Assembly (NCBI GenBank): GCA_963666425.2
Contig: CAXXTX010000012.1
Location: forward strand, 1-22,820
Source: Bacillota bacterium
Lineage (GTDB): Bacteria; Bacillota; JAAYKD01
DNA: 22,820 bases
Direction: 5' to 3'
Shown here: positions 8,721 to 22,725 of the stretch, piece after piece
Position numbering within the stretch: the stretch's first letter is position 1
Layout: each line of letters opens with the position of its first letter
Translations under genes and position numbers: made by a program
The notes under the pieces: generated by a model
The model's input: only the letters and a program-made list of their open reading frames with translations
Told to the model about the DNA's origin: nothing
Databases searched by the model: none

Positions 8721-10001
8721 TCAGGCAGCGGCTTTACGGGCGTTGATCTTGGCGACCTCGTCATCCCAGCCATCGGTGCGAACGTAGGGGTTGGTGCGAG
8801 GTGTCGTCACCATGTTGGCATCAATCTCCAGGCCAATACCTTCAAGGAAATTGATCAGACCAATACGTTCGATCATTTCGCCGGTGCGCTCATGCTCCAG
8901 TGCGTTCTCGGCAAAGAAGTCAATCGACTTCTGCGCAATCTCAACCAGAGCCTCGTAGTCTTCTTCGGTTTTCAGGGGCAAGAACGGCACCACCACCGTG
9001 CCCATCAGGTCACCAATTTTGAGGGTACGTTTGCCGCCCATCAGAATGGTGGCACCTTTGTCAACGCCAGTACCCAGAGCGCCCGTCATAACGTTGATGC
9101 AGTGCATACAACGCACGCAGTTGCCATTGTCAATTTCCAGTGAGTTCGTGTCGCTGACCGCCACTGACGAAATTTTGGCCCCCTGGCAGACATCTTTGCT
9201 TTCCTTGAGCATGATGGCTTTGGTCGGGCAGCGGCTGACCACGTCATTGACCAGCTCGGTCATGCCATGTTTGTCGAACCATTTGCGAGCCAGCGCTTCA
9301 TCGGTACGGATGTTGTCGCGCCAGGTGCCAATCACTGCCATGTCGGCGCGTTGAATGGAGTTCATGCAGTCATTCGGGCAACCCGAAAACTTGAACTTGA
9401 ACTTGTAAGGCAAGGCCGGGCGGTGCATATCATCCAGAAAGGTGTTGAGCACTTGACGATGCGCACGGGCTTCGTCATAACAGGACTGCTCACACCGGGC
9501 AGCCCCCACACACGACATGCTGGTCCGCACGGCCGGGCCGGCCCCCCCCAGATCAAACCCCAACTCGTTCAACTCATCAAACGCCCCTTGCACATTGGCA
9601 GTGCTGGCCCCCTGGAACATGATGTCACCCGACTGGCCGTGAAAAGCGATCAGGCCTGAGCCATGTTTTTCCCAGATGTCACACATTTTGCGTAGCACAT
9701 CGGTGTTGTAGTGCATGCCTGCGGGCGGCTGAATCCGCAAGGTGTGAAACTCCTTGGAAGCCGGAAACATCTCGGCCACTTCGGAGAAACGTGGAATCAC
9801 CCCGCCCCCGTAGCCAAACACACCAACCGTGCCGCCCTTCCAATACCCTTTGCGGGTTTTGTAGGAGTGCTCCAGCTGACCCATCAGGTCAGTCATGTAC
9901 TCACTGTCTTTGGCCAGGCGTTTCAGGCCTGTCACAAAACTGGGCCACGGACCGCTTTCAAGCTGGTCGAGCATGGGGGTGTCATGTTGCTTCTTGCTCA
10001 T
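8721..10001 (-). CDS. dsrA: Reverse dissimilatory sulfite reductase alpha subunit
   Basis: TPMLDQLESGPWPSFV, WKGGTVGVFGYGGG, siroheme-[4Fe-4S] Cys motifs CVGAARC and SGCPNDC, and CVRCMHC. Confidence 0.98.
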   Translation of the reverse strand: MSKKQHDTPMLDQLESGPWPSFVTGLKRLAKDSEYMTDLMGQLEHSYKTRKGYWKGGTVGVFGYGGGVIPRFSEVAEMFPASKEFHTLRIQPPAGMHYNTDVLRKMCDIWEKHGSGLIAFHGQSGDIMFQGASTANVQGAFDELNELGFDLGGAGPAVRTSMSCVGAARCEQSCYDEARAHRQVLNTFLDDMHRPALPYKFKFKFSGCPNDCMNSIQRADMAVIGTWRDNIRTDEALARKWFDKHGMTELVNDVVSRCPTKAIMLKESKDVCQGAKISSVAVSDTNSLEIDNGNCVRCMHCINVMTGALGTGVDKGATILMGGKRTLKIGDLMGTVVVPFLPLKTEEDYEALVEIAQKSIDFFAENALEHERTGEMIERIGLINFLEGIGLEIDANMVTTPRTNPYVRTDGWDDEVAKINARKAAA

Positions 10002-10289
10002 CGAGTGTCTCCTGTCATGGGGCGCAGGGCTTGCGCTGATCGGTCGAACCGGGCGTTTTGGTCAATCACACTGGGCAGTGCACATTGATCAAATCTGGGC
10101 TAAATCGTAGGAGCCAGCGCCACAGTTCACCATCCCCCTCGTTGGGTATTTAGGGCTACCCATTTGGGCTATACCGCCCCACCCGTCCCGGTAATAGACG
10201 ATCAGCCCCTCTATTGCGCCCAATAGAGGCCTAGGCAATTTGCTTGGCATTGAGCCTGACAAATGTTGACTGATCTCACCCAACAACCC
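10002..10289. promoter_or_regulatory. Divergent promoter region between dsrA and the cas6-containing operon, with dyad elements
   Basis: Head-to-head gene layout. Perfect inverted repeat CCTCTATTG-CGCC-CAATAGAGG (10208-10229) and TGGGTA-N8-TACCCA (10143-10162). Promoter boxes were not confidently located. Confidence 0.55.
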
Positions 10290-10529
10290 ATGAACACCCT
10301 CACGCCCCTTGCCAAACTGACCATTCCCATCGGTGGGCAAGTCATTGAATTGCAGCAACTCGACTACGAGGCCGGTGGCATGAGCCTGCTGCGCACCCGC
10401 ATTCGTGAAAAAAGCCGCTTCACCGTGTTTGACATTGACCCGCAATCGGCCCAGCTCTGGGGCGAAGCCTTGCTGCGCTGGGCGCAAGCACAACCCGCAG
10501 CCATGCCGGATGCAGAGGTGTCTTCATGA
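10290..10529 (+). CDS. Small conserved hypothetical protein (DUF6967-like, from memory)
   Basis: 79 aa containing GGMSLLRTRIREKSRFTVFDID. Its stop overlaps the cas6 start (ATGA). Alternative start at 10263. Confidence 0.75.
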   Translation: MNTLTPLAKLTIPIGGQVIELQQLDYEAGGMSLLRTRIREKSRFTVFDIDPQSAQLWGEALLRWAQAQPAAMPDAEVSS

Positions 10530-11140
10530 GCTTGAACCCAGTGCTTGAGAGCACATCGGTCGATGTGGTTTTCCCTCTGGAAGGGGCGTTTCTGCCGCGT
10601 GATCACGCCCAAGTGCTAAAAGATGCGCTGTGCCACCAATGGCCGTTTCTTGAACAGGAAAGCCAGGTTGGCATTCACGCCGTGAAACTCGTCAGCGGCT
10701 GCGATGAACCCGCCCTGCTGTCACGTCGCACCAAGCTGTTGCTGCGCGTCCCCACCCTGCTGGCCGCTGAATTGCTGACCACACAAGGCGTTGATTTGCG
10801 CGTAGATGGCCAAACCCTGCGCCTGGGCCAGCCCCATACCCGCGAATTGCAGCCCCATGCCACCTTGTATGCCTACCAGGTGGCCGCCAGCAGCGCCGAT
10901 GAAGTGGCCTTCATGGCGGATGTGACACGCGAGCTGGCGAGCCTGGAGATTGCGGGTGAACGGGTCTGCGGCAAACACCAGCACATGACACTGAGCGGCG
11001 CTGTGGTGAACACCTTCAGCCTGATGCTGCATGGCTTGCGGCCAGAACAATCCTTGCGCGTGCAAGAACACGGCATTGGCCCACACCGGCTTCTCGGGTG
11101 TGGGCTGTTTATTCCTCACAAATCCGCAGCAGCGGTATGA
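10526..11140 (+). CDS. cas6: Orphan Cas6-family RAMP protein (type I-MYXAN Cas6/Cmx6-like)
   Basis: N-terminal VDVVFPLEGAFLPRDH, GIHAV, LSRRTKLLLRVP, SLRVQEHG, and the C-terminal Cas6 G-rich loop GIGPHRLLGCGLF (GhGxxxxxGhG). Confidence 0.88.
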   Translation: MSLNPVLESTSVDVVFPLEGAFLPRDHAQVLKDALCHQWPFLEQESQVGIHAVKLVSGCDEPALLSRRTKLLLRVPTLLAAELLTTQGVDLRVDGQTLRLGQPHTRELQPHATLYAYQVAASSADEVAFMADVTRELASLEIAGERVCGKHQHMTLSGAVVNTFSLMLHGLRPEQSLRVQEHGIGPHRLLGCGLFIPHKSAAAV

Positions 11141-11168
11141 ATTTTCAACTGACAAAAGGAGACAAAAC

Positions 11169-11498
11169 ATGGGTTACAGCATCAATGGCACCGAAGTTGA
11201 GGCCGACGAGCAAGGTTTTCTAATGGAGCCACTGTATGACGATGAAGCCGTGCGGGTGATTGCGCAGGCCGAAAACATCAGCCTGACCGATGCCCACTGG
11301 GAAGTGGTGAACTACCTGCGTGAAGAATACCGCGAGCACGGCCACACCCCCAACTTTCGTAACATGCTAAAGGGTTTTGCCGAAATTCACCCCGGTGTGG
11401 ACAGCAAATACCTGTACGACTTGTTCCCCATTGGCCCAGCCAAACAAGGCCCCAAAGTGGCCGCCTTGCCGCAGCCCTTGGGCAAAGGTGGTTACTAA
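11169..11498 (+). CDS. DsrC/TusE-family paralogue lacking both C-terminal cysteines (RspA-type)
   Basis: DEQGFL, LTDAHWEVVNYLREEY, YLYDLFPIGPAKQ, ending GPKVAALPQPLGKGGY. The protein contains no Cys. ATG at 11169 follows AAGGAGA. Confidence 0.9.
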   Translation: MGYSINGTEVEADEQGFLMEPLYDDEAVRVIAQAENISLTDAHWEVVNYLREEYREHGHTPNFRNMLKGFAEIHPGVDSKYLYDLFPIGPAKQGPKVAALPQPLGKGGY

Positions 11499-11510
11499 CC
11501 CAAGGACCAT

Positions 11511-12128
11511 ATGGCCAACATCAGAATCAAAAGCCAGTGGTTTCGTGATGGCCCGGCCAAAACGCCACAGCAAAACGCCAGCGCCATGGCCTTCATCACC
11601 TGGCGTGTGGCACAAAACACGCTCAAACAAATGCGCAGCGCCAGTTTTGACATTGAGATCGGGCCACAGTACTTTGCCTTCACCCGCGAAGTCTTGGTGT
11701 TTTTGATTCAGGTGATTGACCGCATGGCCAATGAACGTATGGATGCCGACTTGCGTGCTGAGTTCATGACGGCACTGGTATTGCGCGTGGCAGAAGTCCT
11801 GCAAGACAACGAAGACGGCCTGCTCGGCCCCACTCCAGCCGGACAAGCCAGCTCCCGTGATCAATTCATTGACCTGTTCAACGAATTGGCCGACCACTAT
11901 GCAGACTTTGGCTTCAACACCGATGGCCCGGATTTTGCCTTTGTGCGCTACCTGGGCCATCGCATTGAAGCCCTGATGCCGCAAAAAGACCAGCGCTGGG
12001 TGGTAGATCAAATCATGGCCAGCGAAGTGCCCGATGCCTTTGGCATGATCAAGCGCGGCCTGCAAGGTGTGTTGTCCACCGAGCCACGGCCGCAACGCGC
12101 AGCCCGTGCGGTGGCCTCGGGTGATTAG
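11511..12128 (+). CDS. Conserved hypothetical protein, predicted mostly helical
   Basis: 205-aa ORF with AAGGA RBS, tightly packed in the operon. No recognised motif. Confidence 0.8.
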   Translation: MANIRIKSQWFRDGPAKTPQQNASAMAFITWRVAQNTLKQMRSASFDIEIGPQYFAFTREVLVFLIQVIDRMANERMDADLRAEFMTALVLRVAEVLQDNEDGLLGPTPAGQASSRDQFIDLFNELADHYADFGFNTDGPDFAFVRYLGHRIEALMPQKDQRWVVDQIMASEVPDAFGMIKRGLQGVLSTEPRPQRAARAVASGD

Positions 12129-12130
12129 CC

Positions 12131-13064
12131 ATGACCCAGCCCTTTGACCTCACCCAAGCGTCAGCCTACCAGCGCTGGCGCGATGCCAAGCTGGCCAAAC
12201 TGCCGCGCCAGGCCAGCGACCTGATCGTCGATGTGGTCGACCCCAGATCGCTCCAAAAAGAAGAGCTGCTTGCGCTTATCAAACGGTGCTCAGAGGCCAA
12301 TATGGCCATTTATCGCAGCCCGATCAAAGACGAAGACAAGGCGATTCCCCCTGCGCTTGGGTCAGCAATTGGGCCTGCACCGGCTTGACGGCAACTGGCT
12401 GGCCGATGAAGACGGCGTGTCACCGATTGCGGTGGCCGCCCCGGTGGGTGATCGCCCGGCCTTTATTCCCTACACCAACCGCCCGATCAAGTGGCATACC
12501 GACGGCTATTACCAGCCCCCAGAGCGCCTGATCCGCGCCATGGTTTTGCATTGTGTGCGCCCGGCCAGCAGCGGTGGCGATACCGCGCTGATCGATCATG
12601 AGATGGCCTACATGGCCCTGCGTGATGCCAACCCTGAATGGGTTCGCGCCCTGATGGCCACGGATGCCATGACCATTCCCGAGCGGCTGGACGACGATGG
12701 CATCGCCCGCCCGGCACAGACCGGCCCGGTGTTTGTGGTCGATGCCCAAAGTGGTGAATTACACATGCGCTACACCGCACGCACCCGCAGCATCGTCTGG
12801 AAAAACAATACCGCCACCCAGGAAGCCATCGCCTTTTTGACCGAGTTTCTGGCCAGCGACAGCCCCTGGGTGTGGCGTTTGCGCCTGCAAGCCGGTATGG
12901 GGCTGGTGTGCAACAACGTGCTGCACGACCGCAGCGGTTTTGTCGATGACCCGCTGCACCCCCGGCTGTTGTACCGGGCTCGCTACCTGGATCGCATCAG
13001 CTCTGCGGAAATTTATAACAAATCAGCCTCTAGCGCTTTATTAACATGCGCAAGCAGCTATTAA
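12131..13064 (+). pseudogene. TauD/TfdA-family Fe(II)/2-oxoglutarate dioxygenase-like gene split by a +1 frameshift
   Basis: ORFs 12131-12388 and 12231-13064 join into one 310-aa frame if one C is removed from the C5 run at 12347-12351. Has HxD (WHTDGYY), LHCVRPAxxGG and distal H..R (NNVLHDR). Confidence 0.8.
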
Positions 13065-13073
13065 ATAGATAGT
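13020..13073 (+). repeat. REP-like ~55-bp repeat, copy 1; supplies the last codons and stop of the TauD-like gene
   Basis: AAATCAGCCTCTAGCGC...TGCGCAAGCAGCTAT...ATAGT; four related copies at 16961-19409. Confidence 0.75.
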
Positions 13074-13079
13074 AACACC

Positions 13080-14555
13080 ATGACCCACAAAGTCAGCATC
13101 TGGCGCGCCGCACAACTTCTGGGGATTGCCCGTGGGGTGTTGCAACATCAGGTGCGAGAAGGCACGCTGGTGCTGGAAGACGGCTGGGTGTCCACCGATG
13201 TGCTGGCGCAGCTCTACCCGCATGCCCAACTGGAGGAGTCCGGCATGCTGGAGCGGGTGAGCCAGATTCGCGACGAAGCGTTTGGCAAACGGGTGCGCGA
13301 GCGCCTGTTGCCCAGCCAGGAGGTGTTGGCGCAGCGCATGTTTGCCCAAAGCCAGGAGCTGGCCGACTTGCGCCGCCATTTGCAGCGCTATCACACCCTG
13401 GTGATTGAGTTGCAGCAAAAAATCCGCCAACAATGCCAGCAGCAACCCAGTGCCGTGGCCTGGCTTGAACTGGAACAACAAATCACCCAGGGCTTGGCCC
13501 AGGCCCTGGCGACCGAGCCGGTCGGCATGCTGGAGGTGATGGACGATATGCTCAAAATCATGACCGCCCATGTCACGGTACGCCCCAGCGGGCACGAATT
13601 CTCGGTCGAAGGCCACGCCAATCTGTTGCAAGCCGGTTTGCATTCCGGGCTCAAGCTCAACTACGGCTGTGGCAACGGCAGTTGTGGCATGTGCAAGGTG
13701 CGGGTGATTGACGGCAAGGTGGCCCCCACCCAGCATTCAGACTACATTTTTTCAGAGGCCGAAAAAGCCCAGGGCTACACCCTGATGTGCTGCAACACTG
13801 CCGCCAGCAGCAGCCTCAGTCTGGAGCTGCTCGAAGCCAGTGGCCCACAAGACATTGCGCAACAGCTCATTGTGAGCACGGTGCGTGCCATCACCCCCCT
13901 GGCCCCGGACACCTTGCTGCTGCACTTGCAAACCCCACGCACCCACCGCTTGCGCTTTCTGGCCGGCCAGTCGGTGCAGCTTGGCCTATCCTTGCCGGGG
14001 CAAGGTGACATGTCGGCCATCTACCCGGTGGCCAGTTGCCCCTGTGATGACCGGAACCTGCTGTTTTTTGTGACACGTAACCCGGCTGATGCCTTGGCCA
14101 GCCAACTGTTTGCGGGTCATGTCAAACACGGCACCAGCCTCACGGTGACCGGCCCCAGCGGTGAATTTGTGTTGTCCGCAGGTCACCGGCCGTTGGTTTT
14201 TGCGGCTTGTGATGAAGGTTTTGGACCCATCAAAAGCCTGATCGAATACGCCTTGTCACTGGATGCTGCGCCATCACTGTCCCTGTTTTGGCTGGCCACC
14301 CGCAACGACGGTCACTTTTACGGCAACCAATGCCGTGCCTGGTCTGACGCATTGGATCAGTTCGAGTTTGAGTTGGTCACCCAACCCGATGCTGCCATGG
14401 GAGCCTGGCAAATTGCTCAAGCCATGCGGGCAGATTTGTTTGACATTGACTGCGACTTTTACCTGGCCGGGCCGATGAACTTCATCCAGACTTTGCATGA
14501 TGAATTACGCACCTCGGGCGTGGCCGAATCACAAATTTTTACCCAACTGCTTTGA
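13080..14555 (+). CDS. Fusion protein: N-terminal HTH-like segment, coiled coil, [2Fe-2S] ferredoxin and FAD/NAD-binding reductase-like domains
   Basis: VSIWRAAQLLGIARGVLQHQVREGTL (excisionase/MerR-like HTH); YGCGNGSCGMCK..TLMC ([2Fe-2S]); LRFLAGQ, GPSGEF, GFGPIKSLIE and YLAGP (FNR-like). Confidence 0.85.
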   Translation: MTHKVSIWRAAQLLGIARGVLQHQVREGTLVLEDGWVSTDVLAQLYPHAQLEESGMLERVSQIRDEAFGKRVRERLLPSQEVLAQRMFAQSQELADLRRHLQRYHTLVIELQQKIRQQCQQQPSAVAWLELEQQITQGLAQALATEPVGMLEVMDDMLKIMTAHVTVRPSGHEFSVEGHANLLQAGLHSGLKLNYGCGNGSCGMCKVRVIDGKVAPTQHSDYIFSEAEKAQGYTLMCCNTAASSSLSLELLEASGPQDIAQQLIVSTVRAITPLAPDTLLLHLQTPRTHRLRFLAGQSVQLGLSLPGQGDMSAIYPVASCPCDDRNLLFFVTRNPADALASQLFAGHVKHGTSLTVTGPSGEFVLSAGHRPLVFAACDEGFGPIKSLIEYALSLDAAPSLSLFWLATRNDGHFYGNQCRAWSDALDQFEFELVTQPDAAMGAWQIAQAMRADLFDIDCDFYLAGPMNFIQTLHDELRTSGVAESQIFTQLL

Positions 14556-14977
14556 TGCCGTTGCGCTTACCCACTTTTTTGGCAATGCAAACACCTGCAG
14601 CACACACCACAACATTACCCACCGGGGCAGAAATCCATTCGCAGCCGGTTGCCAACAACATGGCCCTGCCCGATTGCGCCGGTGGCGAGTCTTTTGCCCT
14701 GATGGTGCAAGGCCAAAGCATGGTGCCTGAGTTTCAGGAAGGTGAGATCATTCTGATCGAACCCGAAGGCCTGGCCAAAGAGGGCGCGTATGTGCTGGCC
14801 TGGCACCAGGACGAATGGACGTTCAGGCAACTTTTGCGCAACACTGAGGGCTGGTTGCTGCACGCCCTGAACCCGGCGTTTGAGGATGAAAAGCTGGCTG
14901 ATTTATCGGCCATCAAAGGGGTCATCATCCAGAAAGCCTTGCCGGGCAGACGACGCGCTTCCAAGTTTTATGTCTGA
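14555..14977 (+). CDS. Stand-alone S24 (LexA/UmuD-like) peptidase domain protein
   Basis: FALMVQGQSMVPEFQEGEIILIEP and LHALNPAF. No HTH. ATG overlaps the upstream stop (TGATG); alternative start at 14585. Confidence 0.85.
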   Translation: MPLRLPTFLAMQTPAAHTTTLPTGAEIHSQPVANNMALPDCAGGESFALMVQGQSMVPEFQEGEIILIEPEGLAKEGAYVLAWHQDEWTFRQLLRNTEGWLLHALNPAFEDEKLADLSAIKGVIIQKALPGRRRASKFYV

Positions 14978-15018
14978 AGCCACCCCGACCATCCCCCGCA
15001 ACACCCGCCTCCAACACC

Positions 15019-15237
15019 ATGCCTTATTACATTTACCGCGTCAAACCCTTTGGTCAACTTGAACAGCTCAGTGTCTTTGACAATTTCCCCGATGCCTCCA
15101 GACAAGCCAAAGTGCTGCGCCAGCAGCTTGACCTGCCAGCCACCGACAAGGTGAAAGTGATTTTTGCAGACGATGCTTTTCAAGCAGAAGACCTGCTCTG
15201 CCAGGTGCGCGTGGCGGGGCCCAAGGGTGATGACTGA
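15019..15237 (+). CDS. Small conserved hypothetical protein
   Basis: 72-aa ORF MPYYIYRV...KVIFADDAFQAEDLL, co-oriented with and overlapping the next gene. Confidence 0.7.
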   Translation: MPYYIYRVKPFGQLEQLSVFDNFPDASRQAKVLRQQLDLPATDKVKVIFADDAFQAEDLLCQVRVAGPKGDD

Positions 15238-16207
15238 ATCCAATGCCCAAACATCATTCAGTATGAAGATGTGGAAACACCTCGTCGCCCTTGTGCTGCT
15301 GGTCGCTGCCCACACAACCCAGGCCGTCGAGCCGATCTTCAAAACCGTGAAAGTCACCGACCGGGTGTATGCCCTGGTGGGGGAATTGACCCAGCGCTCC
15401 CCGCGTAATCTGGGCAACAACATGACCTGCGGCTTCATCCTTGCCGATGACGGCGTGGTGGTGGTTGATTCAGGTGGCTCGGCAGAAGGGGCCAAGGCGA
15501 TTGTTCAGGCCGTTCGCGCGGTCACAGACCAGCCGGTGCGCTGGGTCATCAATACCGGTGGACAAGATCACCGCTGGTTTGGCAATGATTATTTTCAGCG
15601 TGTGATCGGGGCCAAGGTGATTGCGTCCGAGCCCGGCGTGCTGGACATGAAAGCCCGTGGGCTCCAGCAATTGGAAGCCGCCCGTACCAACCTGGCCACA
15701 CATTTTGCGGGCACCGTGCTGGCCTACCCGGATGTCACGTTCAGCAAACGCCACAAACTGGCCGTACGTGGCATCCACATTGAGTTGATGGAATCCGGCG
15801 GCGCACACACCCAAGGCGACCTGTTGGTGTGGTTGCCCCAAGAAAAACTGGTGTTCTCGGGTGACATGGTGTTCACTGACCGCCTGCTGGGCATCATGCC
15901 CGGTACGGGCTTGAAATGGATCACCGCCCTGACCTATCTGCGTGATGAATTACACCCCGCAACCGTCATCCCCGGGCACGGCAACGTAGCCACACTGGAA
16001 AAAGCCATGAAAGACAGCCTGGGTTACCTGACCCTGCTGCGCGATGGTGCTGCACGGGCATTTCAAAATGGGGCCTTTGACCCGGTAGAGGCTTCACAGC
16101 AGATTGACCAATCACCCTATGCGTACCTGGAGAACTTTAGCGATACCCAGTTTCGCAGCAACAACGCCATTCACATGGCCGAAGAAGTGTTTGCGGGCAT
16201 GCGCTGA
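15230..16207 (+). CDS. Exported metallo-beta-lactamase-fold protein (SoxH-like)
   Basis: Signal peptide; VVVDSG, VINTGGQDHRWFGN, AHTQGD, FSGD and IPGHG motifs. The start could be 15263. Confidence 0.85.
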   Translation: MTESNAQTSFSMKMWKHLVALVLLVAAHTTQAVEPIFKTVKVTDRVYALVGELTQRSPRNLGNNMTCGFILADDGVVVVDSGGSAEGAKAIVQAVRAVTDQPVRWVINTGGQDHRWFGNDYFQRVIGAKVIASEPGVLDMKARGLQQLEAARTNLATHFAGTVLAYPDVTFSKRHKLAVRGIHIELMESGGAHTQGDLLVWLPQEKLVFSGDMVFTDRLLGIMPGTGLKWITALTYLRDELHPATVIPGHGNVATLEKAMKDSLGYLTLLRDGAARAFQNGAFDPVEASQQIDQSPYAYLENFSDTQFRSNNAIHMAEEVFAGMR

Positions 16208-16318
16208 AGCGTTGGATTGGCAAGCACTGCGCATGAAGGCCCCATTGCCGTGGCATGCGCCTTGCTTATCAGCCCACGCGCACTGCCCCACGCCATGCTC
16301 AAATTTGAAAGACCCGTC

Positions 16319-16939
16319 ATGCACACCAAAGACCATTGGGAAAACGTTTACAGCCACAAACCCGCTACCGATGTCAGCTGGTTTCAGGCTCACGCAGAAC
16401 AATCCCTGCGCCTGATTCGCAACACCGGCGTGCCGGAATCAGCCGCCATCATTGATGTGGGCGGTGGTGCCTCAACCCTGGTGGATGATCTTTTGCAGCA
16501 CGCCTTCACCAATCTGACGGTGCTGGATCTTTCAGCGGCAGCACTGGAAACTGCCCGTGCACGACTCGGTGCACAAGCCCGCCAAGTGCAATGGCGGGTG
16601 GGCGACATTACCAAGGCCAGCTTGCCCCAGCATGCTTTTGATGTCTGGCATGACCGCGCCGTGTTCCACTTTCTGACCGATCCCCAAGACCGCCAAGCCT
16701 ATGTGGACTGCGTGCTGCGCAGCGTCAAACCCGGTGGCCACGTCATCATGGCCACATTTGCCAGCGATGGCCCGCTGCAATGCAGCGGTTTGCCGGTGAT
16801 GCGCTACGAGCCCGAAGCCTTGCACGCCGAATTTGGCGCGCCTTTTGTCTTGCTCAGCCATGAGCGCGAAGACCACCACACCCCTTTTGGCACGGTGCAA
16901 AAGTTTGTCTACTGCTATTGCAGAAAGCAGCTCTCGTGA
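16319..16939 (+). CDS. Class I SAM-dependent methyltransferase
   Basis: HWENVY, VSWFQ, IIDVGGGAS, VLDLS, WHDRAVFHFL and LRSVKPGG motifs. Confidence 0.9.
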   Translation: MHTKDHWENVYSHKPATDVSWFQAHAEQSLRLIRNTGVPESAAIIDVGGGASTLVDDLLQHAFTNLTVLDLSAAALETARARLGAQARQVQWRVGDITKASLPQHAFDVWHDRAVFHFLTDPQDRQAYVDCVLRSVKPGGHVIMATFASDGPLQCSGLPVMRYEPEALHAEFGAPFVLLSHEREDHHTPFGTVQKFVYCYCRKQLS

Positions 16940-16960
16940 GTTTTCTCTGATTCAGAAAAA

Positions 16961-17012
16961 ACTATTTTTGATAGCTGCTAGCGCTTATTCAATATGGGCT
17001 AGAGGCCAATTT
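16961..17012 (-). repeat. REP-like repeat, copy 2 (inverted)
   Basis: Reverse complement reads AAATTGGCCTCTAGCCC...AGCGCTAGCAGCTATCAAAAATAGT. Confidence 0.75.
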
Positions 17013-17047
17013 CATCAAGATGATTGGGGGCAGACACCCATTTCGCT

Positions 17048-17179
17048 GCCGCGCAAATCTTCCTGATCGGGGCCGAATTCACCTGGGTGTATGCGAACAC
17101 GTTGGGGCCGAGAAAACTGCCCAGCGATGCCGACCGCCAAAGGCTGGCTGACTGCCTGGCTGGCGATGGCATGGCTTGA
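17048..17179 (+). pseudogene. C-terminal fragment of a YihY/BrkB-family membrane protein
   Basis: Manual translation from 17051 gives AQIFLIGAEFTWVYANTLG...*, matching the YihY C-terminal xAQIFLxGAEF motif. An in-frame stop lies just upstream at 17021. Confidence 0.7.
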
Positions 17180-17208
17180 CGTTGCGCTGCTGGGTGCAGT
17201 TTGCATAC

Positions 17209-17266
17209 AAATTGACCTCTAGCCCTTTATTGACCTGCGCAAGTAGCTATATATTTTGAATAACTT
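17209..17266 (+). repeat. REP-like repeat, copy 3; near-identical to copy 5
   Basis: AAATTGACCTCTAGCCCTTTATTGACCTGCGCAAGTAGCTATATATTTTGAATAACTT. Confidence 0.8.
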
Positions 17267-17312
17267 AACGTTTTTTCATACAGGCTTGAGTATGGGTTGA
17301 TTTTTTTATACG

Positions 17313-17366
17313 TTTTTGGCTTGTAGCCCTTGTCTGCATTGCGCAGACAGCTATTGATTGAATAGT
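17313..17366 (+). repeat. REP-like repeat, copy 4 (diverged)
   Basis: TTTTTGGCTTGTAGCCC...TGCGCAGACAGCTAT...AATAGT. Confidence 0.65.
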
Positions 17367-17442
17367 TGTTCAGCCCACTATCTACCCGCCTCTTTCCACC
17401 CGTACCGGGGAGGAATGAGGTGCCAACACTCAATCTCAGGTG

Positions 17443-17556
17443 CACCCAGTACAAATCAACCTTCTCGGTGCTGAGACTAAAGTGCCTGTACCGGATACGC
17501 TGGCGCAGCTGATCCAGCAGGCGGGTTGATTGCAAGGATGGTGTGCCGGGTTTCAG
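17443..17556 (-). pseudogene. intI: Integron integrase N-terminal stub (about 38 codons)
   Basis: (L)KPGTPSLQSTRLLDQLRQRIRYRHFSLSTEKVDLYWV resembles the IntI N-terminus (LLDQxRxRIRxxHYSxxTExxYxxWV). The expected ATG reads CTG, and similarity stops after WV. Confidence 0.85.
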
Positions 17557-17569
17557 GGGAAATTTAGAC

Positions 17570-17585
17570 CTGGTTACGTATCCAC
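17570..17585. promoter_or_regulatory. Possible decayed LexA (SOS) box upstream of the intI stub
   Basis: CTGGTTACGTATCCAC differs by one base from CTG-N10-CAG and lies 13 bp upstream of the intI start position, where integron LexA boxes usually sit. Confidence 0.3.
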
Positions 17586-17690
17586 CGTATTGGCCTGCAA
17601 GCTAGACTACAAGCCACTTTCAGGAGAATTTCATGACCAGATTAATAAGCAGCGGCCAGAATATTTTGCAAGTCTTGCCGTGGTCATTAC

Positions 17691-17700
17691 GTTAGCGGCC
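17691..17700 (+). other. Integron cassette core (recombination) site
   Basis: GTTAGCGGCC just before the cassette ATG is complementary to GACCGCTA(AC) at the gene's 3' end (18523-18530), as expected for the R'/R'' pair of one cassette. Confidence 0.7.
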
Positions 17701-17703
17701 ACC

Positions 17704-18531
17704 ATGTCATACAGCGCCGACTACGCCACATTGCTTGGCCTGTTTATTGACCTCGTTCAATCACAAGCAGGAAGCGCTATCGCCCCGGACGATGAGTGGT
17801 GGAATGATGCGCAAACACTATCTATCAAGCTGTTTCGCCATTTAGTCTCCATGCAAACTTTGGCTGTCGGTGCGACGGTTGAGCACAACAACGATCAAAT
17901 CGTATTTTTCATAGACCATGCATCAGTCAAAGTAGTCGCCCGAGCAGCACTCGAAACATATCTTGTGTTCTTTTACATCTACGGCAGCAGTGACCATGAG
18001 CTGGCCAAGTTCAGGCACAAGACCTGGCATCTTGGTGGCCTTGCGGATCGTCAGCAGTCCCATGCATCAAGAGATGAGCACATGGAAAAGCTGGCAGAGG
18101 AAAGGCAACAAATCGAAAACCTAAGATCTGAAATTAAGGCTGCGCCTCAATTTCAAGCCTACTCTTCAAGGCAGCAAACAAAACTGTTGGAAGGCGAATG
18201 GAAGATCGGCATCAGCTGGACTGATCTCGGCATAGAAGCAGGTTTCCATGAAAAATACTTCAAAAACATATACAGCTACCTTTGTGGCTACTCACATTCG
18301 AGCTACATCAGCGCACTCCAAGTTGGCCAAGCTAATTCAGTGGATACACAGAAAGTTCTCACGCAGGCAATACTAGGAATTGGTGTCGTCATCATGGCTC
18401 ACTACACATTCGCTTACTCTCGTGTCTTCAAGCAGGCCGAAGCGGTTCTTTCATCAAATCCTGAGGTTCGGCGCATTGCCGAAAAGTGGCATCTTGGCCC
18501 GAATGACATGGCATCGATCTATGACCGCTAA
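17704..18531 (+). CDS. Integron cassette gene, 275 aa, DUF5677-like helical protein of unknown function
   Basis: Visibly more AT-rich than the flanks. Motifs ARAALE and YSYLCGYSH. Bounded by core and inverse-core sites and divergent from the intI stub. Confidence 0.75.
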   Translation: MSYSADYATLLGLFIDLVQSQAGSAIAPDDEWWNDAQTLSIKLFRHLVSMQTLAVGATVEHNNDQIVFFIDHASVKVVARAALETYLVFFYIYGSSDHELAKFRHKTWHLGGLADRQQSHASRDEHMEKLAEERQQIENLRSEIKAAPQFQAYSSRQQTKLLEGEWKIGISWTDLGIEAGFHEKYFKNIYSYLCGYSHSSYISALQVGQANSVDTQKVLTQAILGIGVVIMAHYTFAYSRVFKQAEAVLSSNPEVRRIAEKWHLGPNDMASIYDR

Positions 18532-19050
18532 TCGGGTAGCCGGGAGTCTCTAACTCCCAGCCCTCACACCACCCACCGTGCGGGTCCGCAGTGGGCGGAA
18601 CAACCAAGTCGGCACGCTCGACGAAGTTTTTTCTCTTCTTCTTTGCCGTATAGCCCTGTGCCTTGCACCACAGGTCCTTCACACTGAGCAAACCTTGCTC
18701 CTTTAACCAGCCTTGCAGGCCGCACCCACGCCTCAGGCGTGGCCTCTTCGCGCTGTCCAACAGTGCGCAGGCACTGTTGGAGCCGCAGCGCTCAGCGTTG
18801 GAAATGGCTCGGTTGATCACCGGGGTTCTGGACATCTGCCAGTAGCTGTTGCTACTGACACCGTGCTGAATCGCGGACTTCAGGTCAACTCCCAAAGCCA
18901 GCAGATTCTTGATCTTGGGTAACGCGACCAGCGCCACTGTTTCCAGTAGCAGATGCGCATGCGCCGTCTGATCCACTCATCCAGTTCAAGAACCGGGCGG
19001 TAGTACTGGCTGATGCCAAAGTACGCCGTCCAGTCCCGAAGGTATTGCCC
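18531..19050 (-). mobile_element. 3' remnant of a group IIC-attC intron (maturase/X-domain fragment, domain V, domain VI)
   Basis: Minus strand encodes GQYLRDWTAYFGISQYYRPVLELDEWIRRRMRICYWKQWR, a frameshift near 18918, then KIKNLLALG...SYWQMSRTP...WLKEQGLLS. DV CCGCCCACTGCGGACCCGCACGGTGGGTGG (18569-18598, CGC triad) is followed by DVI ending CTACCCGAT at 18531. Confidence 0.9.
18710..18793. repeat. 84-bp double-hairpin insertion in the intron ORF
   Basis: Separates ISNA from WLKEQGL in frame. Hairpins CCACGCCT-C-AGGCGTGG (18726-18742) and TCCAACAGTGC-GCAG-GCACTGTTGGA (18756-18781). Confidence 0.65.
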
Positions 19051-20227: not shown

Positions 20228-21337
20228 TCACGCACGCCAGTTTTGGTAGTGCATGGTGGCCACAGACCCCGCCATGATGCTGGCCAGTACCAGGAATGAG
20301 CCCACCGCCAGCGTCGAGACACCCGACAAGCCTTGCCCAACGGTGCAGCCCAATGCGGTGACACCACCAAAGCCCATCAGCACAGCACCCAACAGTTGGG
20401 TGCGCAAATCCTCGACCGAGGCAAAACCTTCCCAGCGAAATTGGCGCGAGCTGAGGGCATATACCCATGAACCCAGCACCACACCCATGGCGCTGGCAAT
20501 GCCAAAGCTGATCAATAAGGATTTGTCCGTCCACAGCATCAACAACTCCAGACTGAATGCGGTGGGGGCTACAAAACTGAACGACTCCAGCGTGCGGGTA
20601 TTGGTGGCAAAGTAAACCATCTCCATCGTGTCAGGGTTTTCGCCGTAGCCGATGTGACCGGTGAGGTACCAAGCGGCCACCACCAGCGCCCCCAACACGA
20701 TACCCCCCACCAGCTGATTGGTGTTGCTGCGGAAGCGCTTGTCTTTCAATGCAAAGACCAGCAAGGCCAGACTCAGCACCGACACACTGGCCAGCACGGC
20801 CACTTTGTCAGCCAGACCCGTGAGCTTGGCCAAAATCAGCGGCAGGGTTTGCCCCGTGAGCCCCCAGCGGGACAAATCCAGCGTCACAGGATCCAGAAAA
20901 CTGGCACGCCACTGGCCGAACAAGCCCTTGAGCGTCATGTAGGCAGAAATGGCCACAAACACCAGCACCACCAGCGAGCGCAAGCTGCCGCCCCCCACGC
21001 GCACCAGATTTTTGTTGACGCAGCCCCCGGCAATCGTCATGCCGACCCCAAACAAACCGCCCCCGATCAACAAGGACAGCCAGGGCAAACTGGGTCGCAC
21101 ATAGATCGACTTGGACAGATCAATCAACCCCTGCACATGAAGCACCTGAGTGCCCACCATGGCCACGGCCATAGCCAACAGCCACATTCGCAAGCGCCCC
21201 CAATGTTCCATGTTGACCACATCAGAAATCGCCCCCATGGTGCAAAAATTGGTTTTGTTGGCCACTACACCAAACACGAAGGCCAACACAAAGCCTCCCC
21301 AAACAACCCAGGCAGACGGATTCATGGTTTCAGTCAT
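20228..21337 (-). CDS. YeeE/YedE-family sulfur-compound transporter
   Basis: Multi-TM protein with three conserved Cys motifs: NFCTMGA, GMTIAGGC and GGVTALGCTVGQGLSG. Confidence 0.92.
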   Translation of the reverse strand: MTETMNPSAWVVWGGFVLAFVFGVVANKTNFCTMGAISDVVNMEHWGRLRMWLLAMAVAMVGTQVLHVQGLIDLSKSIYVRPSLPWLSLLIGGGLFGVGMTIAGGCVNKNLVRVGGGSLRSLVVLVFVAISAYMTLKGLFGQWRASFLDPVTLDLSRWGLTGQTLPLILAKLTGLADKVAVLASVSVLSLALLVFALKDKRFRSNTNQLVGGIVLGALVVAAWYLTGHIGYGENPDTMEMVYFATNTRTLESFSFVAPTAFSLELLMLWTDKSLLISFGIASAMGVVLGSWVYALSSRQFRWEGFASVEDLRTQLLGAVLMGFGGVTALGCTVGQGLSGVSTLAVGSFLVLASIMAGSVATMHYQNWRA

Positions 21338-21363
21338 GTCACAACTCCAAGTGTCCTTAGGGC

Positions 21364-22251
21364 TTAATTGCCGGAAGCGCCAGAACTTGCCAAACGCACC
21401 AATGTGTTCCGAATAGCCTCCGGCGCATTGATGATGCCCATGAATTGCCCCATACCCAAAGCCGGCCAGGCCAGTGCAATGCGGTACCGCGCATAAAGAG
21501 CGTAAACCTTGTGATCCACAATAAACAGCTCATAAGGCAACGCAGCCGGAAAATCTGTACCAATCTTGTTGACCCACCAGGCTTCACCGTCGTTGCCACT
21601 GTTCATGGCCACACCAAACACCGCCATTTTCTGAGCCGGCATGACCACTTCGTAGACCCGCTGGGTATCCCCCACACCTTTGGCCAGGTTGCCTTGAACC
21701 GCTTTCAGTGCTTCATCAAAATTGGCAAAACTGCCAATCTCGCTGTTGGCTGAATCAAAGCGCTCCATGCCAAACATATAGCGGTAGTCGGTCAGTTGTC
21801 CCTGGGGTACATCACCCCCAAAACCAGTCCCCTCGCCCAAGGCTTTGCTCAAACGCAGCTGGACAGATTTGACCGCTTCCTGAGCACCAGAAAATTGGTT
21901 GCGCAAATAAGCCCGATACCAGTAGTCCGGTGTCATGTAAGAAACACTGCCATCCGCGGAAATACCCACACGCAGGCCCGCCGCAACAATGCTGCTACTG
22001 GTTCCAGTGGTACGAATCAATTCCAGCAAAGCGGGGTCAGAAACCACCACACTGGCCTGACCCGCAATGCCTTTGGGCATGTGATGCCCCAGCACCGTAA
22101 AGCCCTCGGCTTGCAATTTTTTCTCAACCTGAGCCAACTGGGTTGGCAAATCAGCACCGGATAACTTGCCGGCGTGTGTGTAAGGTGCCAGAGCCAGGCT
22201 GAGTTGCGCCGCACACAGCAGGGCGCAACCCATGAGCCATTGTTTCATCAT
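21364..22251 (-). CDS. Exported conserved hypothetical protein
   Basis: 295-aa ORF with a signal peptide, tightly packed between dsrE2 and the YeeE gene. Confidence 0.8.
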   Translation of the reverse strand: MMKQWLMGCALLCAAQLSLALAPYTHAGKLSGADLPTQLAQVEKKLQAEGFTVLGHHMPKGIAGQASVVVSDPALLELIRTTGTSSSIVAAGLRVGISADGSVSYMTPDYWYRAYLRNQFSGAQEAVKSVQLRLSKALGEGTGFGGDVPQGQLTDYRYMFGMERFDSANSEIGSFANFDEALKAVQGNLAKGVGDTQRVYEVVMPAQKMAVFGVAMNSGNDGEAWWVNKIGTDFPAALPYELFIVDHKVYALYARYRIALAWPALGMGQFMGIINAPEAIRNTLVRLASSGASGN

Positions 22252-22254
22252 GGC

Positions 22255-22725
22255 TCAGATGAACAGGCAAACATCAGACTCACCCGCGAACTTCATGAAG
22301 GTGGCGGCCCCGCCGTACTCCACATCCTTGATGAATTCGCTGGTTTCAAACTCAAACAGATCCACCGTCATCTGGCAGGCGACAAATTTGACATCAGACT
22401 CCAGGCAGATGTCACGCAACTCTTGCAGTGATGCCACCCCCTTGGACTTCATCTTGTTTTTCATCATCATGGTCGCCATGGACTCCATGCCGGGCAGCAT
22501 TTGCACCATGACCGGCATCGGCACCGGCATGGGCATGGCCGGATTGGCCAGTGGACTGATCTTGATGTCGTCAAGGCTTTTGCGCAGCAGTTGCAGCCCG
22601 TAAAAGGTGAAAAATATTTGGACATCCCAGCCCAACGCCGCTGCGGTGGAGGCCAAAATGAATGGCGGATACGCCATATCCAAGGTGCCTTTGGTGGCGA
22701 TCAGTGCCATTTTTTTGCTTGCCAT
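22255..22725 (-). CDS. dsrE2: DsrE2-type sulfurtransferase
   Basis: ATKGTLDMAYPPFILASTAAALG, FFTFYGL, ACQMTVDLF and GAATF motifs. Confidence 0.9.
   Translation of the reverse strand: MASKKMALIATKGTLDMAYPPFILASTAAALGWDVQIFFTFYGLQLLRKSLDDIKISPLANPAMPMPVPMPVMVQMLPGMESMATMMMKNKMKSKGVASLQELRDICLESDVKFVACQMTVDLFEFETSEFIKDVEYGGAATFMKFAGESDVCLFI

Follow-up and report, generated by a model that had tools for sequence, protein, structure and literature searches.

A conserved gene cluster with a Cas6-fold protein and a cysteine-free DsrC paralog, divergent from oxidative dsrAB in sulfur-oxidising Gammaproteobacteria

What do a Cas6-fold protein and a DsrC paralog devoid of cysteine do beside the genes of the oxidative dissimilatory sulfite reductase (rDsr) pathway? 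The question is raised by a stretch of 22,820 nucleotides (contig CAXXTX010000012.1 of assembly GCA_963666425.2, deposited as Bacillota bacterium; hereafter the window, meaning the whole of that stretch), in which eight co-oriented open reading frames (ORFs; g1 to g8, + strand, 10263-15237) lie divergent from dsrA. In order, they encode a DUF6967 protein (g1), the Cas6-fold protein (g2), the cysteine-free DsrC paralog (g3), an all-helical protein (g4), a TauD-family dioxygenase (g5), a [2Fe-2S] ferredoxin-domain protein (g6), an S24 protein without a helix-turn-helix (HTH) domain (g7) and a 72-amino-acid protein (g8). An earlier reading of this DNA from its letters alone (the sequence-only reading) had described eight tightly packed genes divergent from dsrAB, and this was confirmed: the spacings from g1 to g8 are -4, 28, 12, 2, 15, -4 and 41 bp. 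We report that in sulfur-oxidising Gammaproteobacteria, among them the Burkholderiales, oxidative dsrAB is accompanied by a conserved cluster, and that, as is well supported, the block in the window is a local, extended version of it, with a core (g1-g5) joined by a second set (g6-g8). Its back-to-back position beside dsrAB in nearly all such bacteria makes it likely that the cluster helps or controls the rDsr pathway.

The provenance of the window bears on the choice of relatives. The window is an entire contig (C13) with a GC content of 56%, relative to 47% for the 2.9-Mb main contig of the assembly, and in tetranucleotide usage it correlates with the genome at only 0.45. The assembly's sole dsrA resides on it, and DUF6967 occurs in none of the other nine genomes of the ten that make up the assembly's class. 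Its closest DNA relatives are a Comamonadaceae metagenome-assembled genome (MAG), with which the window proteins share 86-99% identity, and a Rhodoferax MAG, to whose locus L002 the window's dsrA is 94% identical; the 90% protein clusters of g2 and g4 hold proteins of Rhodoferax lithotrophicus MIZ03. By composition and nearest relatives, C13 looks like a mis-binned Rhodoferax-like contig, and it was therefore treated as such, with kin drawn from the Rhodoferax MAG genome (G011). Four other small contigs of the same assembly (C3, C7, C10 and C12) also have a GC content near or above 0.59 and a low correlation.

The order to which G011 belongs was sampled with 401 genomes. Loci comprised up to 20 kb around each DUF6967 match, plus the dsrA of 13 dsrA-positive genomes without DUF6967, and ortholog profile hidden Markov models (HMMs) were run over 84 of the 86 loci, excluding L108, where DUF6967 occurs as a weak additional copy, and L109, where the match falls below the cut-off. 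Among the 84, dsrA is contained in 78, and 68 have at least 7 kb on the module side and are termed well-covered. DUF6967 was found in 72 genomes of this sample, 71 of them above the cut-off, and dsrA in 83. Seventy of the 71 DUF6967 genomes have dsrA; in the remaining one, dsrA is seen as a fragment where the contig ends (L096). Of the 13 dsrA-positive genomes without DUF6967, 12 keep g2 and g3 by dsrA, in two other gene orders. In the well-covered loci, the profile scan recovered g4 in 66/68, g2 in 65/68, g3 in 62/68, g1 in 53/68 and g5 in 51/68. The last three genes are far rarer: g6 in 7/68, g7 in 4/68 (with five more on the other strand) and g8 in 4/68. The relatives' operons often carry something that the window does not, for the gap between g3 and g4, 12 bp in the window, is about 480 or 900 bp in relatives (median 896 bp) and is mostly filled by a two-domain gene, either a tandem rhodanese (32/68) or a tandem TusA (29/68).

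The association holds beyond the order. A class sample of 401 genomes included 126 with dsrA at E<=1e-40, of which 125 were counted, G011 being left out. PF09559, the family of g2, was present in 118 of these 125, nearly always in single copy, and in 0/80 dsrA-negative genomes of the same sample; 14 control genomes had none either. In 88 genomes the PF09559 gene shares a contig with dsrA at a distance of 650-4484 bp (median 1720) and, without exception, points away from it; among the remaining cases, 25 are on another contig, five are distant on the same contig, and seven genomes are without the gene. In the phylum sample PF09559 was found in 2/201 genomes (G011 and G562), both dsrA-positive, which is too few to judge beyond the class. 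Forty of the 88 dsrA-adjacent gammaproteobacterial loci were examined, and all 40 carry g2, with g3 in 33, g5 in 27 and g4 within 12 kb in 23. The usual order, reading outward from dsrA, is g5, g2, g3 (25/40); g5 and g2 stand without g3 in two loci, g2 and g3 without g5 in eight, and g1, g2 and g4 together in five. This arrangement is far beyond chance. The tie to the rDsr pathway that the sequence-only reading had supposed was thus borne out by profiling, as was synteny across beta- and gammaproteobacterial sulfur oxidisers for the core, although not for g6-g8. In some gamma loci a Pfam-less gene of 263-310 amino acids stands between dsrQ and the Cas6-fold gene (L131:3763-4695; L132:3963-4754).

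The most unexpected member of the core, the Cas6-fold protein g2 (10526..11140, +), matches PF09559 at 190 bits (cut-off 26.7) and TIGR02807, the Cas6/Cmx6 model, at 146.5 bits (cut-off 98.85); NCBI-type models label it "type I-MYXAN Cas6/Cmx6". Its predicted structure is confident (predicted local distance difference test, pLDDT, 93.6), and the top Foldseek match is 8fcu_B, the Cas6 chain of a type I-B CRISPR-associated transposon (CAST) Cascade, at a TM score of 0.87, a root-mean-square deviation of 1.9, 24% identity and E 2.7e-16. There were 48 PDB matches at E<=0.001, and those listed are all CRISPR Cas6-type proteins or Cas6-containing complexes. Like the Cas6 of type I-B systems (8fcu_B and 8fcj_B, 24-25% identical), g2 has the double ferredoxin-like fold of the RAMP proteins with a C-terminal G-rich loop, and it belongs to the same PF09559/TIGR02807 family by curated score. 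Unlike them, it has no array or cas genes nearby, no invariant histidine and a strict linkage to dsrA. In an alignment of 53 family members, G183, G185, G191 and G193 of the G-rich loop are invariant, as are several arginines or lysines, and no histidine is invariant or nearly so. Most characterised Cas6 enzymes use a catalytic histidine. Since catalytic residues vary between Cas6 families, we can only infer a loss of cleavage in g2. The closest known relatives of g2 are RNA-hairpin binders. A homology search with the g2 alignment returned 2117 proteins, whose names say little about taxonomy.

The DUF6967 protein g1 (10263..10529, +; PF22295, 95.4 bits) has its likely start at the ATG at 10290, and its stop overlaps the start of g2 by four bases. 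The two genes are fused as a single ORF in three loci (L056, L068 and L074).

The family of DsrC, TusE and RspA, to which g3 belongs, was reportedly treated by Venceslau and co-workers in 2014. Of that family g3 (11169..11498, +) is a clear member by profile (PF04358, 102.7 bits; TIGR03342, 89.1 bits against a cut-off of 53.5), and it contains no cysteine at all, as the sequence-only reading had said. Aligned with the window's own DsrC, it retains the AGLPxPxG C-terminal arm and ends in KGGY in place of Cys-Val/Ile. K106, G108 and Y109 are invariant in 50 sequences, three gammaproteobacterial ones among them. Across the g3 family the CysA position has become KGGY and the CysB position is Pro, Ala or Val (Cys in a few), so that the CysB-X10-CysA pattern of DsrC is missing. 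Nor does g3 fit TusE, in which the penultimate Cys is conserved: it has no cysteine and scores 76 bits against NF008562 (cut-off 191). As in RspA, with which g3 was compared by description rather than by alignment to a named RspA, both cysteines are missing, yet the arm is present. According to the available part of PMC8477390, an AGLPKPTG-type arm is typical of DsrC and DsrC-like proteins and absent from TusE and RspA; g3 therefore differs from both in keeping the arm, and it carries the invariant KGGY end besides. Cys-less members of the family are termed RspA and thought to be regulatory in the accessible text of PMC9371685, where MHY1_00075, a DsrC-like gene without CysA that lies three genes from dsrQ, is called probably regulatory.

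A further comparison is with DsrD, the activator of reductive DsrAB. Both are small, dsr-linked and without cysteine, DsrD having a fold of nucleic-acid-binding type, and each marks one direction of the pathway. The likeness is functional only, for DsrD is a winged helix that marks reducers, whereas g3 has the DsrC fold and its cluster marks oxidisers.

The dioxygenase gene g5 (12131..13064, +; PF02668, 77 bits) corresponds to the dsrQ of the literature. According to PMC7596348, PMC6018796 and PMC9371685, the name dsrQ was given by Lenk et al. 2012 to a tauD-like gene that diverges from dsrA; these papers call its function unknown or speculate that it releases sulfite from sulfonates. Like literature dsrQ, g5 is of the TauD family, lies on the strand opposite dsrA and adjoins the dsr cluster, and in 27/40 gammaproteobacterial loci it is the first gene beside dsrA, matching the published placement. 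Unlike the dsrQ of those papers, which treat it singly, the window's g5 is the fifth gene of a block and is frameshifted: one extra C in a C-run at 12347 (a +1 frameshift) splits it into two frames, 12131-12388 and 12231-13064. The orthologue in L002 is a single ORF, and the extra C is missing in contigs of other runs (X1, 10.7/10.7 depth; X5, 48.9/48.9; X3, 15.9/35.6); the frameshift is, for these reasons, an assembly error or a strain-level lesion and no feature of the family. The family assignment made from sequence alone thus stands, with the qualification that the window copy is broken. Across 51 family sequences, the iron triad HxD...H and the 2-oxoglutarate (2OG)-binding arginine (H122, D124, H265, R278 and R282) are at least 95% conserved. 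The DsrQ family, judged by these retained residues, is therefore catalytically intact and not degenerate.

The fifth core protein, g4 (11511..12128, +), is all-helical, about 195-205 amino acids long in its family and without a family in Pfam or NCBIfam. Its predicted structure has six helices at a pLDDT of 91.4, and Foldseek against the PDB returned no matches at E<=0.001. The top VIA-align match, 6rwt_A, a Brucella Cbp3 homolog, reaches Z 9.4 over 162 of 181 residues, with the next match at Z 6.9; this is a helical-bundle match that falls under the tool's safe level. The R. lithotrophicus ortholog is named "Ubiquinol-cytochrome C chaperone" in one source, and a weak PDB profile match to PAP12/pTAC7 (E 0.19) points in that direction too. 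Pfam gave no match, the Cbp3 family PF03981 included, and the best Atlas score, 0.84, led to no family with a name. The g4 protein may be Cbp3-like, with the fold of a ubiquinol-cytochrome c chaperone, and we offer this model-based resemblance as a lead only.

The last three genes are a different matter. The protein g6 (13080..14555, +) joins an N-terminal extension of about 160 residues, of no recognised fold, to a plant-type [2Fe-2S] ferredoxin domain (Fer2, 54.8 bits) and a module resembling ferredoxin-NADP reductase (FNR). The sequence-only reading had seen an HTH-ferredoxin-reductase here; the ferredoxin domain and a weak FNR module were recovered, and the HTH was not. Pfam at E<=5 found no HTH in the N-terminal 107-167 residues (only coiled-coil-type noise), and a PDB sequence search at E<=10 found none either, with no match below E 0.5. 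FAD_binding_6 scored 25.6 bits, NAD_binding_1 17 bits (below its cut-off of 22) and the BenC model 117 bits (cut-off 430). In alignment with the BenC reductase 1krh, Ala replaces the Arg of RxYS and CDEGFGP replaces GGTGIAP. By sequence, the FAD and NAD motifs of the FNR-like module are degenerate, and g6 falls outside the BenC-type reductases despite its Fer2 domain.

The protein g7 (14552..14977, +; PF00717 Peptidase_S24, 61.3 bits) consists of the C-terminal domain of LexA and lambda cI, without an HTH, as had been read from the sequence. With those repressors it shares the S24 domain and the Gly-x-Ser-Met motif; unlike them, it has no DNA-binding domain and carries Arg in place of the catalytic Lys. 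In alignment with lambda cI, its GQSM stands at GNSM, so that the serine motif is kept, and its TFRQL at TFKKL places Arg at Lys192, the catalytic lysine that the K192A mutant chain marks. The same Arg occurs in six g7-like proteins of other lineages (L111, L113, L116, L118, L122 and L145), all of them HTH-less, and close to the module, too, other lineages repeatedly carry g7-like proteins. Finally, g8 (15019..15237, +) encodes the 72-residue protein without a family in Pfam or NCBIfam, and its orthologs come after g7 in L063, L064, L106 and L110 and in the remote g6 loci L169 and L174.

Full-length g6, N-terminal extension included, is present in 59/80 dsrA-positive genomes of the order sample, with four more holding N-terminal fragments, and mostly lies far from dsrA; in 79 dsrA-negative genomes it was found in none, the only matches being generic Fer2-FNR hits to residues 114-489. 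Twelve remote g6 loci were inspected, and four of them have g7 and/or g8 no more than about 4 kb away. In two remote loci (L169:2030-7722 and L174), four co-oriented Pfam-less ORFs come after g6 within about 3.5 kb, and behind them g7 and g8. The full block of eight is syntenic in L002 (= L110), L063 and L064; L106 also has all eight, with about 2.4 kb containing an opposite-strand DsrE2 match between g5 and g6. Since g6-g8 join the core in only 4/68 well-covered loci, yet g6 tracks dsrA, they are a second, looser rDsr-linked set that has been joined to the core in this lineage.

Between dsrA and the module lies the divergent intergenic region (10002..10289). Aligned with L001 and L002, it shows a strongly conserved non-coding block (about 10124-10230) with a palindrome and an inverted repeat; between the window and L002 this block exceeds 90% identity, although their g2 proteins are only 69% identical. 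The window's palindrome copy, CTACCC-ATTT-GGGCTA at 10155-10172, is imperfect. CTACCC/GGGTAG occurs in 61/71 beta-type intergenic regions, relative to about 11 in shuffles (maximum 19). The strict pattern TAYCC-N4-6-GGRTA occurs in 25/71 beta and 26/40 gamma intergenic regions, relative to a mean of 0.29 and a maximum of 3 in 300 shuffles. The consensus is aCCTACCC-N3-5-GGGTAGGt in beta and cTATCCC-N4-GGGATAg/t in gamma loci. The region shows the marks of a candidate nucleic-acid-binding factor acting there, as far as sequence conservation can tell. As RNA, a gamma copy folds into a 6-bp stem with a tetraloop (z -1.9). The inverted repeat (10208-10229) is a perfect one of 9 bp around a 4-nt loop, about 35-60 bp upstream of g1; L001 and L002 share the loop and the right arm with the window, and not the left arm.

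Five dsrA paralogs that stand alone, without the module, were also searched for the palindrome over 700 bases of upstream sequence, and it was found in 0/5. These second dsrA-like genes (L117, L124, L125, L126 and L127, of genomes G304, G030, G377, G120 and G250) are 68-77% identical to the window's DsrA and have no dsrB, module genes or palindrome nearby; a DsrA paralog without DsrB is odd in itself. Rfam gave zero family matches across the window. A promoter scan of 9900-17300 returned two promoter-like sites, which is the level of shuffles, none of them in the intergenic region, and a terminator scan of the same stretch found nothing convincing between genes.

What, then, does the cluster do? 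We tentatively favour, at somewhat less than an even chance, a nucleic-acid-based feedback by the Cas6-fold protein that would be linked to the Cys-free DsrC paralog and accompanied by helper enzymes. Having lost CRISPR, and with no conserved catalytic histidine, the Cas6-fold protein would bind the palindrome near dsrA, either as a leader RNA stem-loop or as DNA. The DUF6967 protein would be its bound partner, for which the sole evidence is that the two genes are fused in three genomes. The DsrC paralog without cysteine, which keeps the docking arm and could not carry sulfur, would couple binding to the state of DsrAB or of the Dsr sulfur relay. At the protein and sulfur level, DsrQ, the Cbp3-like protein and TusA or rhodanese would be at work, and the [2Fe-2S] protein g6 and the catalytically altered S24 protein g7 would add a redox-sensing layer in this lineage. 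A more specific version seems to us rather doubtful. In it, a Cas6 endoribonuclease lineage would have abandoned CRISPR immunity and settled permanently in the oxidative Dsr pathway; together with DUF6967 it would recognise a repeat-like CCC-N4-GGG stem-loop in the dsrA leader region and, with a sulfur-blind DsrC paralog whose KGGY tail DsrQ might modify, it would adjust dsr expression or the fate of the mRNA to the enzyme's state. An exapted defence protein would then be in control of energy metabolism.

In favour of the feedback stand the synteny and co-occurrence counts in both samples, the Cas6 fold of g2 with its invariant G-rich loop and conserved Arg/Lys, the g1-g2 fusions, the kept arm, lost cysteines and KGGY end of g3, the frequency of the palindrome with its absence upstream of the lone dsrA paralogs, the stem formed by a gamma copy and, for the second set, the tracking of dsrA by g6 and the recurrence of g7-like proteins. 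Several observations weigh against the favoured feedback. The window's palindrome copy folds as RNA no better than shuffles (z 0.14 and -0.51). The palindrome arms are conserved in sequence and not just in pairing, and neither outer-arm pairing nor the counts of G-T versus A-C mismatches show a strand bias; given both, an RNA hairpin and a DNA operator are not distinguishable. The palindrome could equally be the operator of an unrelated regulator, and the sulfur carriers, intact dioxygenase and chaperone-like protein of the operon suit a purely enzyme-level role. DsrD offers a warning: its fold had long led it to be regarded as a DNA-binding regulator, yet it turned out to activate DsrAB allosterically (PMC8794893). 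Finally, the figures given above are counts and not probabilities, for the genome sampling scheme is unspecified and kin are not independent.

The enzyme-level alternative is the most serious rival, and we rate it as possible, with the balance against it. Here the module would help the enzymes with no part in gene regulation: g3 would dock on rDsrAB, DsrEFH or DsrK as an effector or placeholder, in the manner of DsrD; the Cas6-fold protein and DUF6967 would be a scaffold; the Cbp3-like protein would assemble a Dsr component; DsrQ would hydroxylate a protein residue or a small sulfur compound; and TusA and rhodanese would feed sulfur. It draws support from the tandem TusA (29/68) or rhodanese (32/68) genes within relatives' operons, the conserved catalytic triad of DsrQ, the best structural match of g4 to a Cbp3 homolog (Z 9.4), the retained docking arm and invariant Lys-Gly-Gly-Tyr tail of g3, and the DsrD precedent (PMC8794893, in the part seen). 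It does less well with g2, whose listed Foldseek matches (E<=0.001) are all Cas6-type or Cas6-containing, and it leaves the conserved palindrome unexplained; the Cbp3 match, moreover, lies below the safe level of the tool and has no backing from Pfam or the Atlas. The sulfur carriers themselves invite comparison with a sulfur relay of Allochromatium vinosum, rhd-tusA-dsrE2 (PMC6397845 and PMC7787665, citing Stockdreher et al. 2014). Relatives' operons share tandem TusA or rhodanese genes between g3 and g4, and the window has a DsrE2 gene; unlike the A. vinosum relay, the window operon is without TusA or rhodanese, and the relatives' proteins are two-domain forms.

The sequence-only reading had gone further than either of these and taken the eight genes for one dedicated redox- or sulfur-sensing regulatory unit of rDsr, a proposal that now appears improbable. 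The tight, co-oriented packing in the window, the occurrence of all eight genes in L002, L063, L064 and L106, and the co-occurrence of both sub-sets with dsrA all speak for it. Against it stand the rarity of g6-g8 after the core, the scarcity of g7 and g8 near remote g6 genes (4/12), the missing HTH of g6 and a core that holds enzymes and, in relatives, sulfur carriers. With g6-g8 mostly elsewhere, the TusA or rhodanese of relatives' cores, the intact dioxygenase and the chaperone-like g4 fit enzyme-level helpers equally well or better, so the single eight-gene control unit was not upheld.

Similarly improbable is the explanation in which DsrQ frees sulfite from sulfonates for the Dsr/Soe pathway and the other genes are unrelated neighbours. 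It has in its favour the TauD family membership with intact iron and 2OG residues, speculation in print (the parts seen of PMC7596348 and PMC9371685) and a TauE sulfite-exporter gene downstream in one gamma locus (L131:6908-7675). It does not account for the conservation of g2, g3 and g4 beside dsrQ across the class; the best NCBIfam matches of g5 are to trimethyl-lysine and butyrobetaine hydroxylases, far below the cut-off, and not to TauD proper; and g5 is frameshifted in the window while the rest of the block is intact.

A decayed CRISPR-Cas remnant lying beside dsr by chance, which only the model name of g2 suggests, can be dismissed, for no CRISPR-like repeat array was found in the window, Cas1 is absent from 3/10 carriers of the g2-family gene and more than 60 kb away or on another contig in the other seven, and in 88/88 genomes the gene keeps one orientation and position with respect to dsrA, the family being found in 0/80 dsrA-negative genomes.

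The remaining features of the window lie on either side of the module. On the left, dsrA itself (8721..10001, -), with NIR_SIR and NIR_SIR_ferr domains, is of the oxidative type and heads a cluster on the - strand in which dsrA is followed by dsrB, dsrE, dsrF, dsrH, dsrC, dsrM, dsrK, dsrL and further dsr genes, reaching the left end of the window. On the right, g8 is followed by two co-oriented genes (15164-16939), a SoxH-like metallo-beta-lactamase-fold protein (TIGR04559, 128 bits, below the cut-off) and then a class I methyltransferase. The metallo-beta-lactamase gene also follows g8 in L001 and is absent there in L002, and the transcription unit may extend past 15237. Farther on, a block on the - strand (20228-22725) comprises a DsrE2-type protein (22255-22725), a 295-amino-acid protein without a family and a YeeE/YedE-type "sulphur transport" protein. 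The block is kept in L002, and many beta-type loci carry a DsrE2 gene just past the module. Between module and DsrE2 block, in 17000-18600, the GC content falls to 0.49-0.50 around a DUF5677 gene (17530-18531); this low-GC stretch may be an insertion, and it is missing in L002.

A full-text literature search, with subscription papers outside its coverage, found no papers linking Cas6, Cmx6, PF09559 or DUF6967 to dsr. Cas6 has zero mentions in the text available of PMC9371685 and PMC6397845, nor does CRISPR occur in the main text available of PMC9371685.

Regulation and assembly of rDsr sulfur oxidation are poorly known, and the pathway occurs widely, in groundwater and sediments as well as in symbionts and phototrophs. 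Candidate genes for deletion and assay follow directly from a set that goes with dsrAB in almost all genomes sampled and whose Cas6-family member was seen in 0/80 genomes without dsrA. A "Type I-MYXAN Cas6/Cmx6" annotation in a sulfur oxidiser is not evidence of CRISPR, and in metagenomes the joint presence of PF09559 and the KGGY-tailed DsrC paralog can be used to mark oxidative Dsr. The conserved palindrome provides a defined sequence for binding assays. A Cas6 fold at work outside CRISPR would be a clear example of metabolism having taken over a defence protein.

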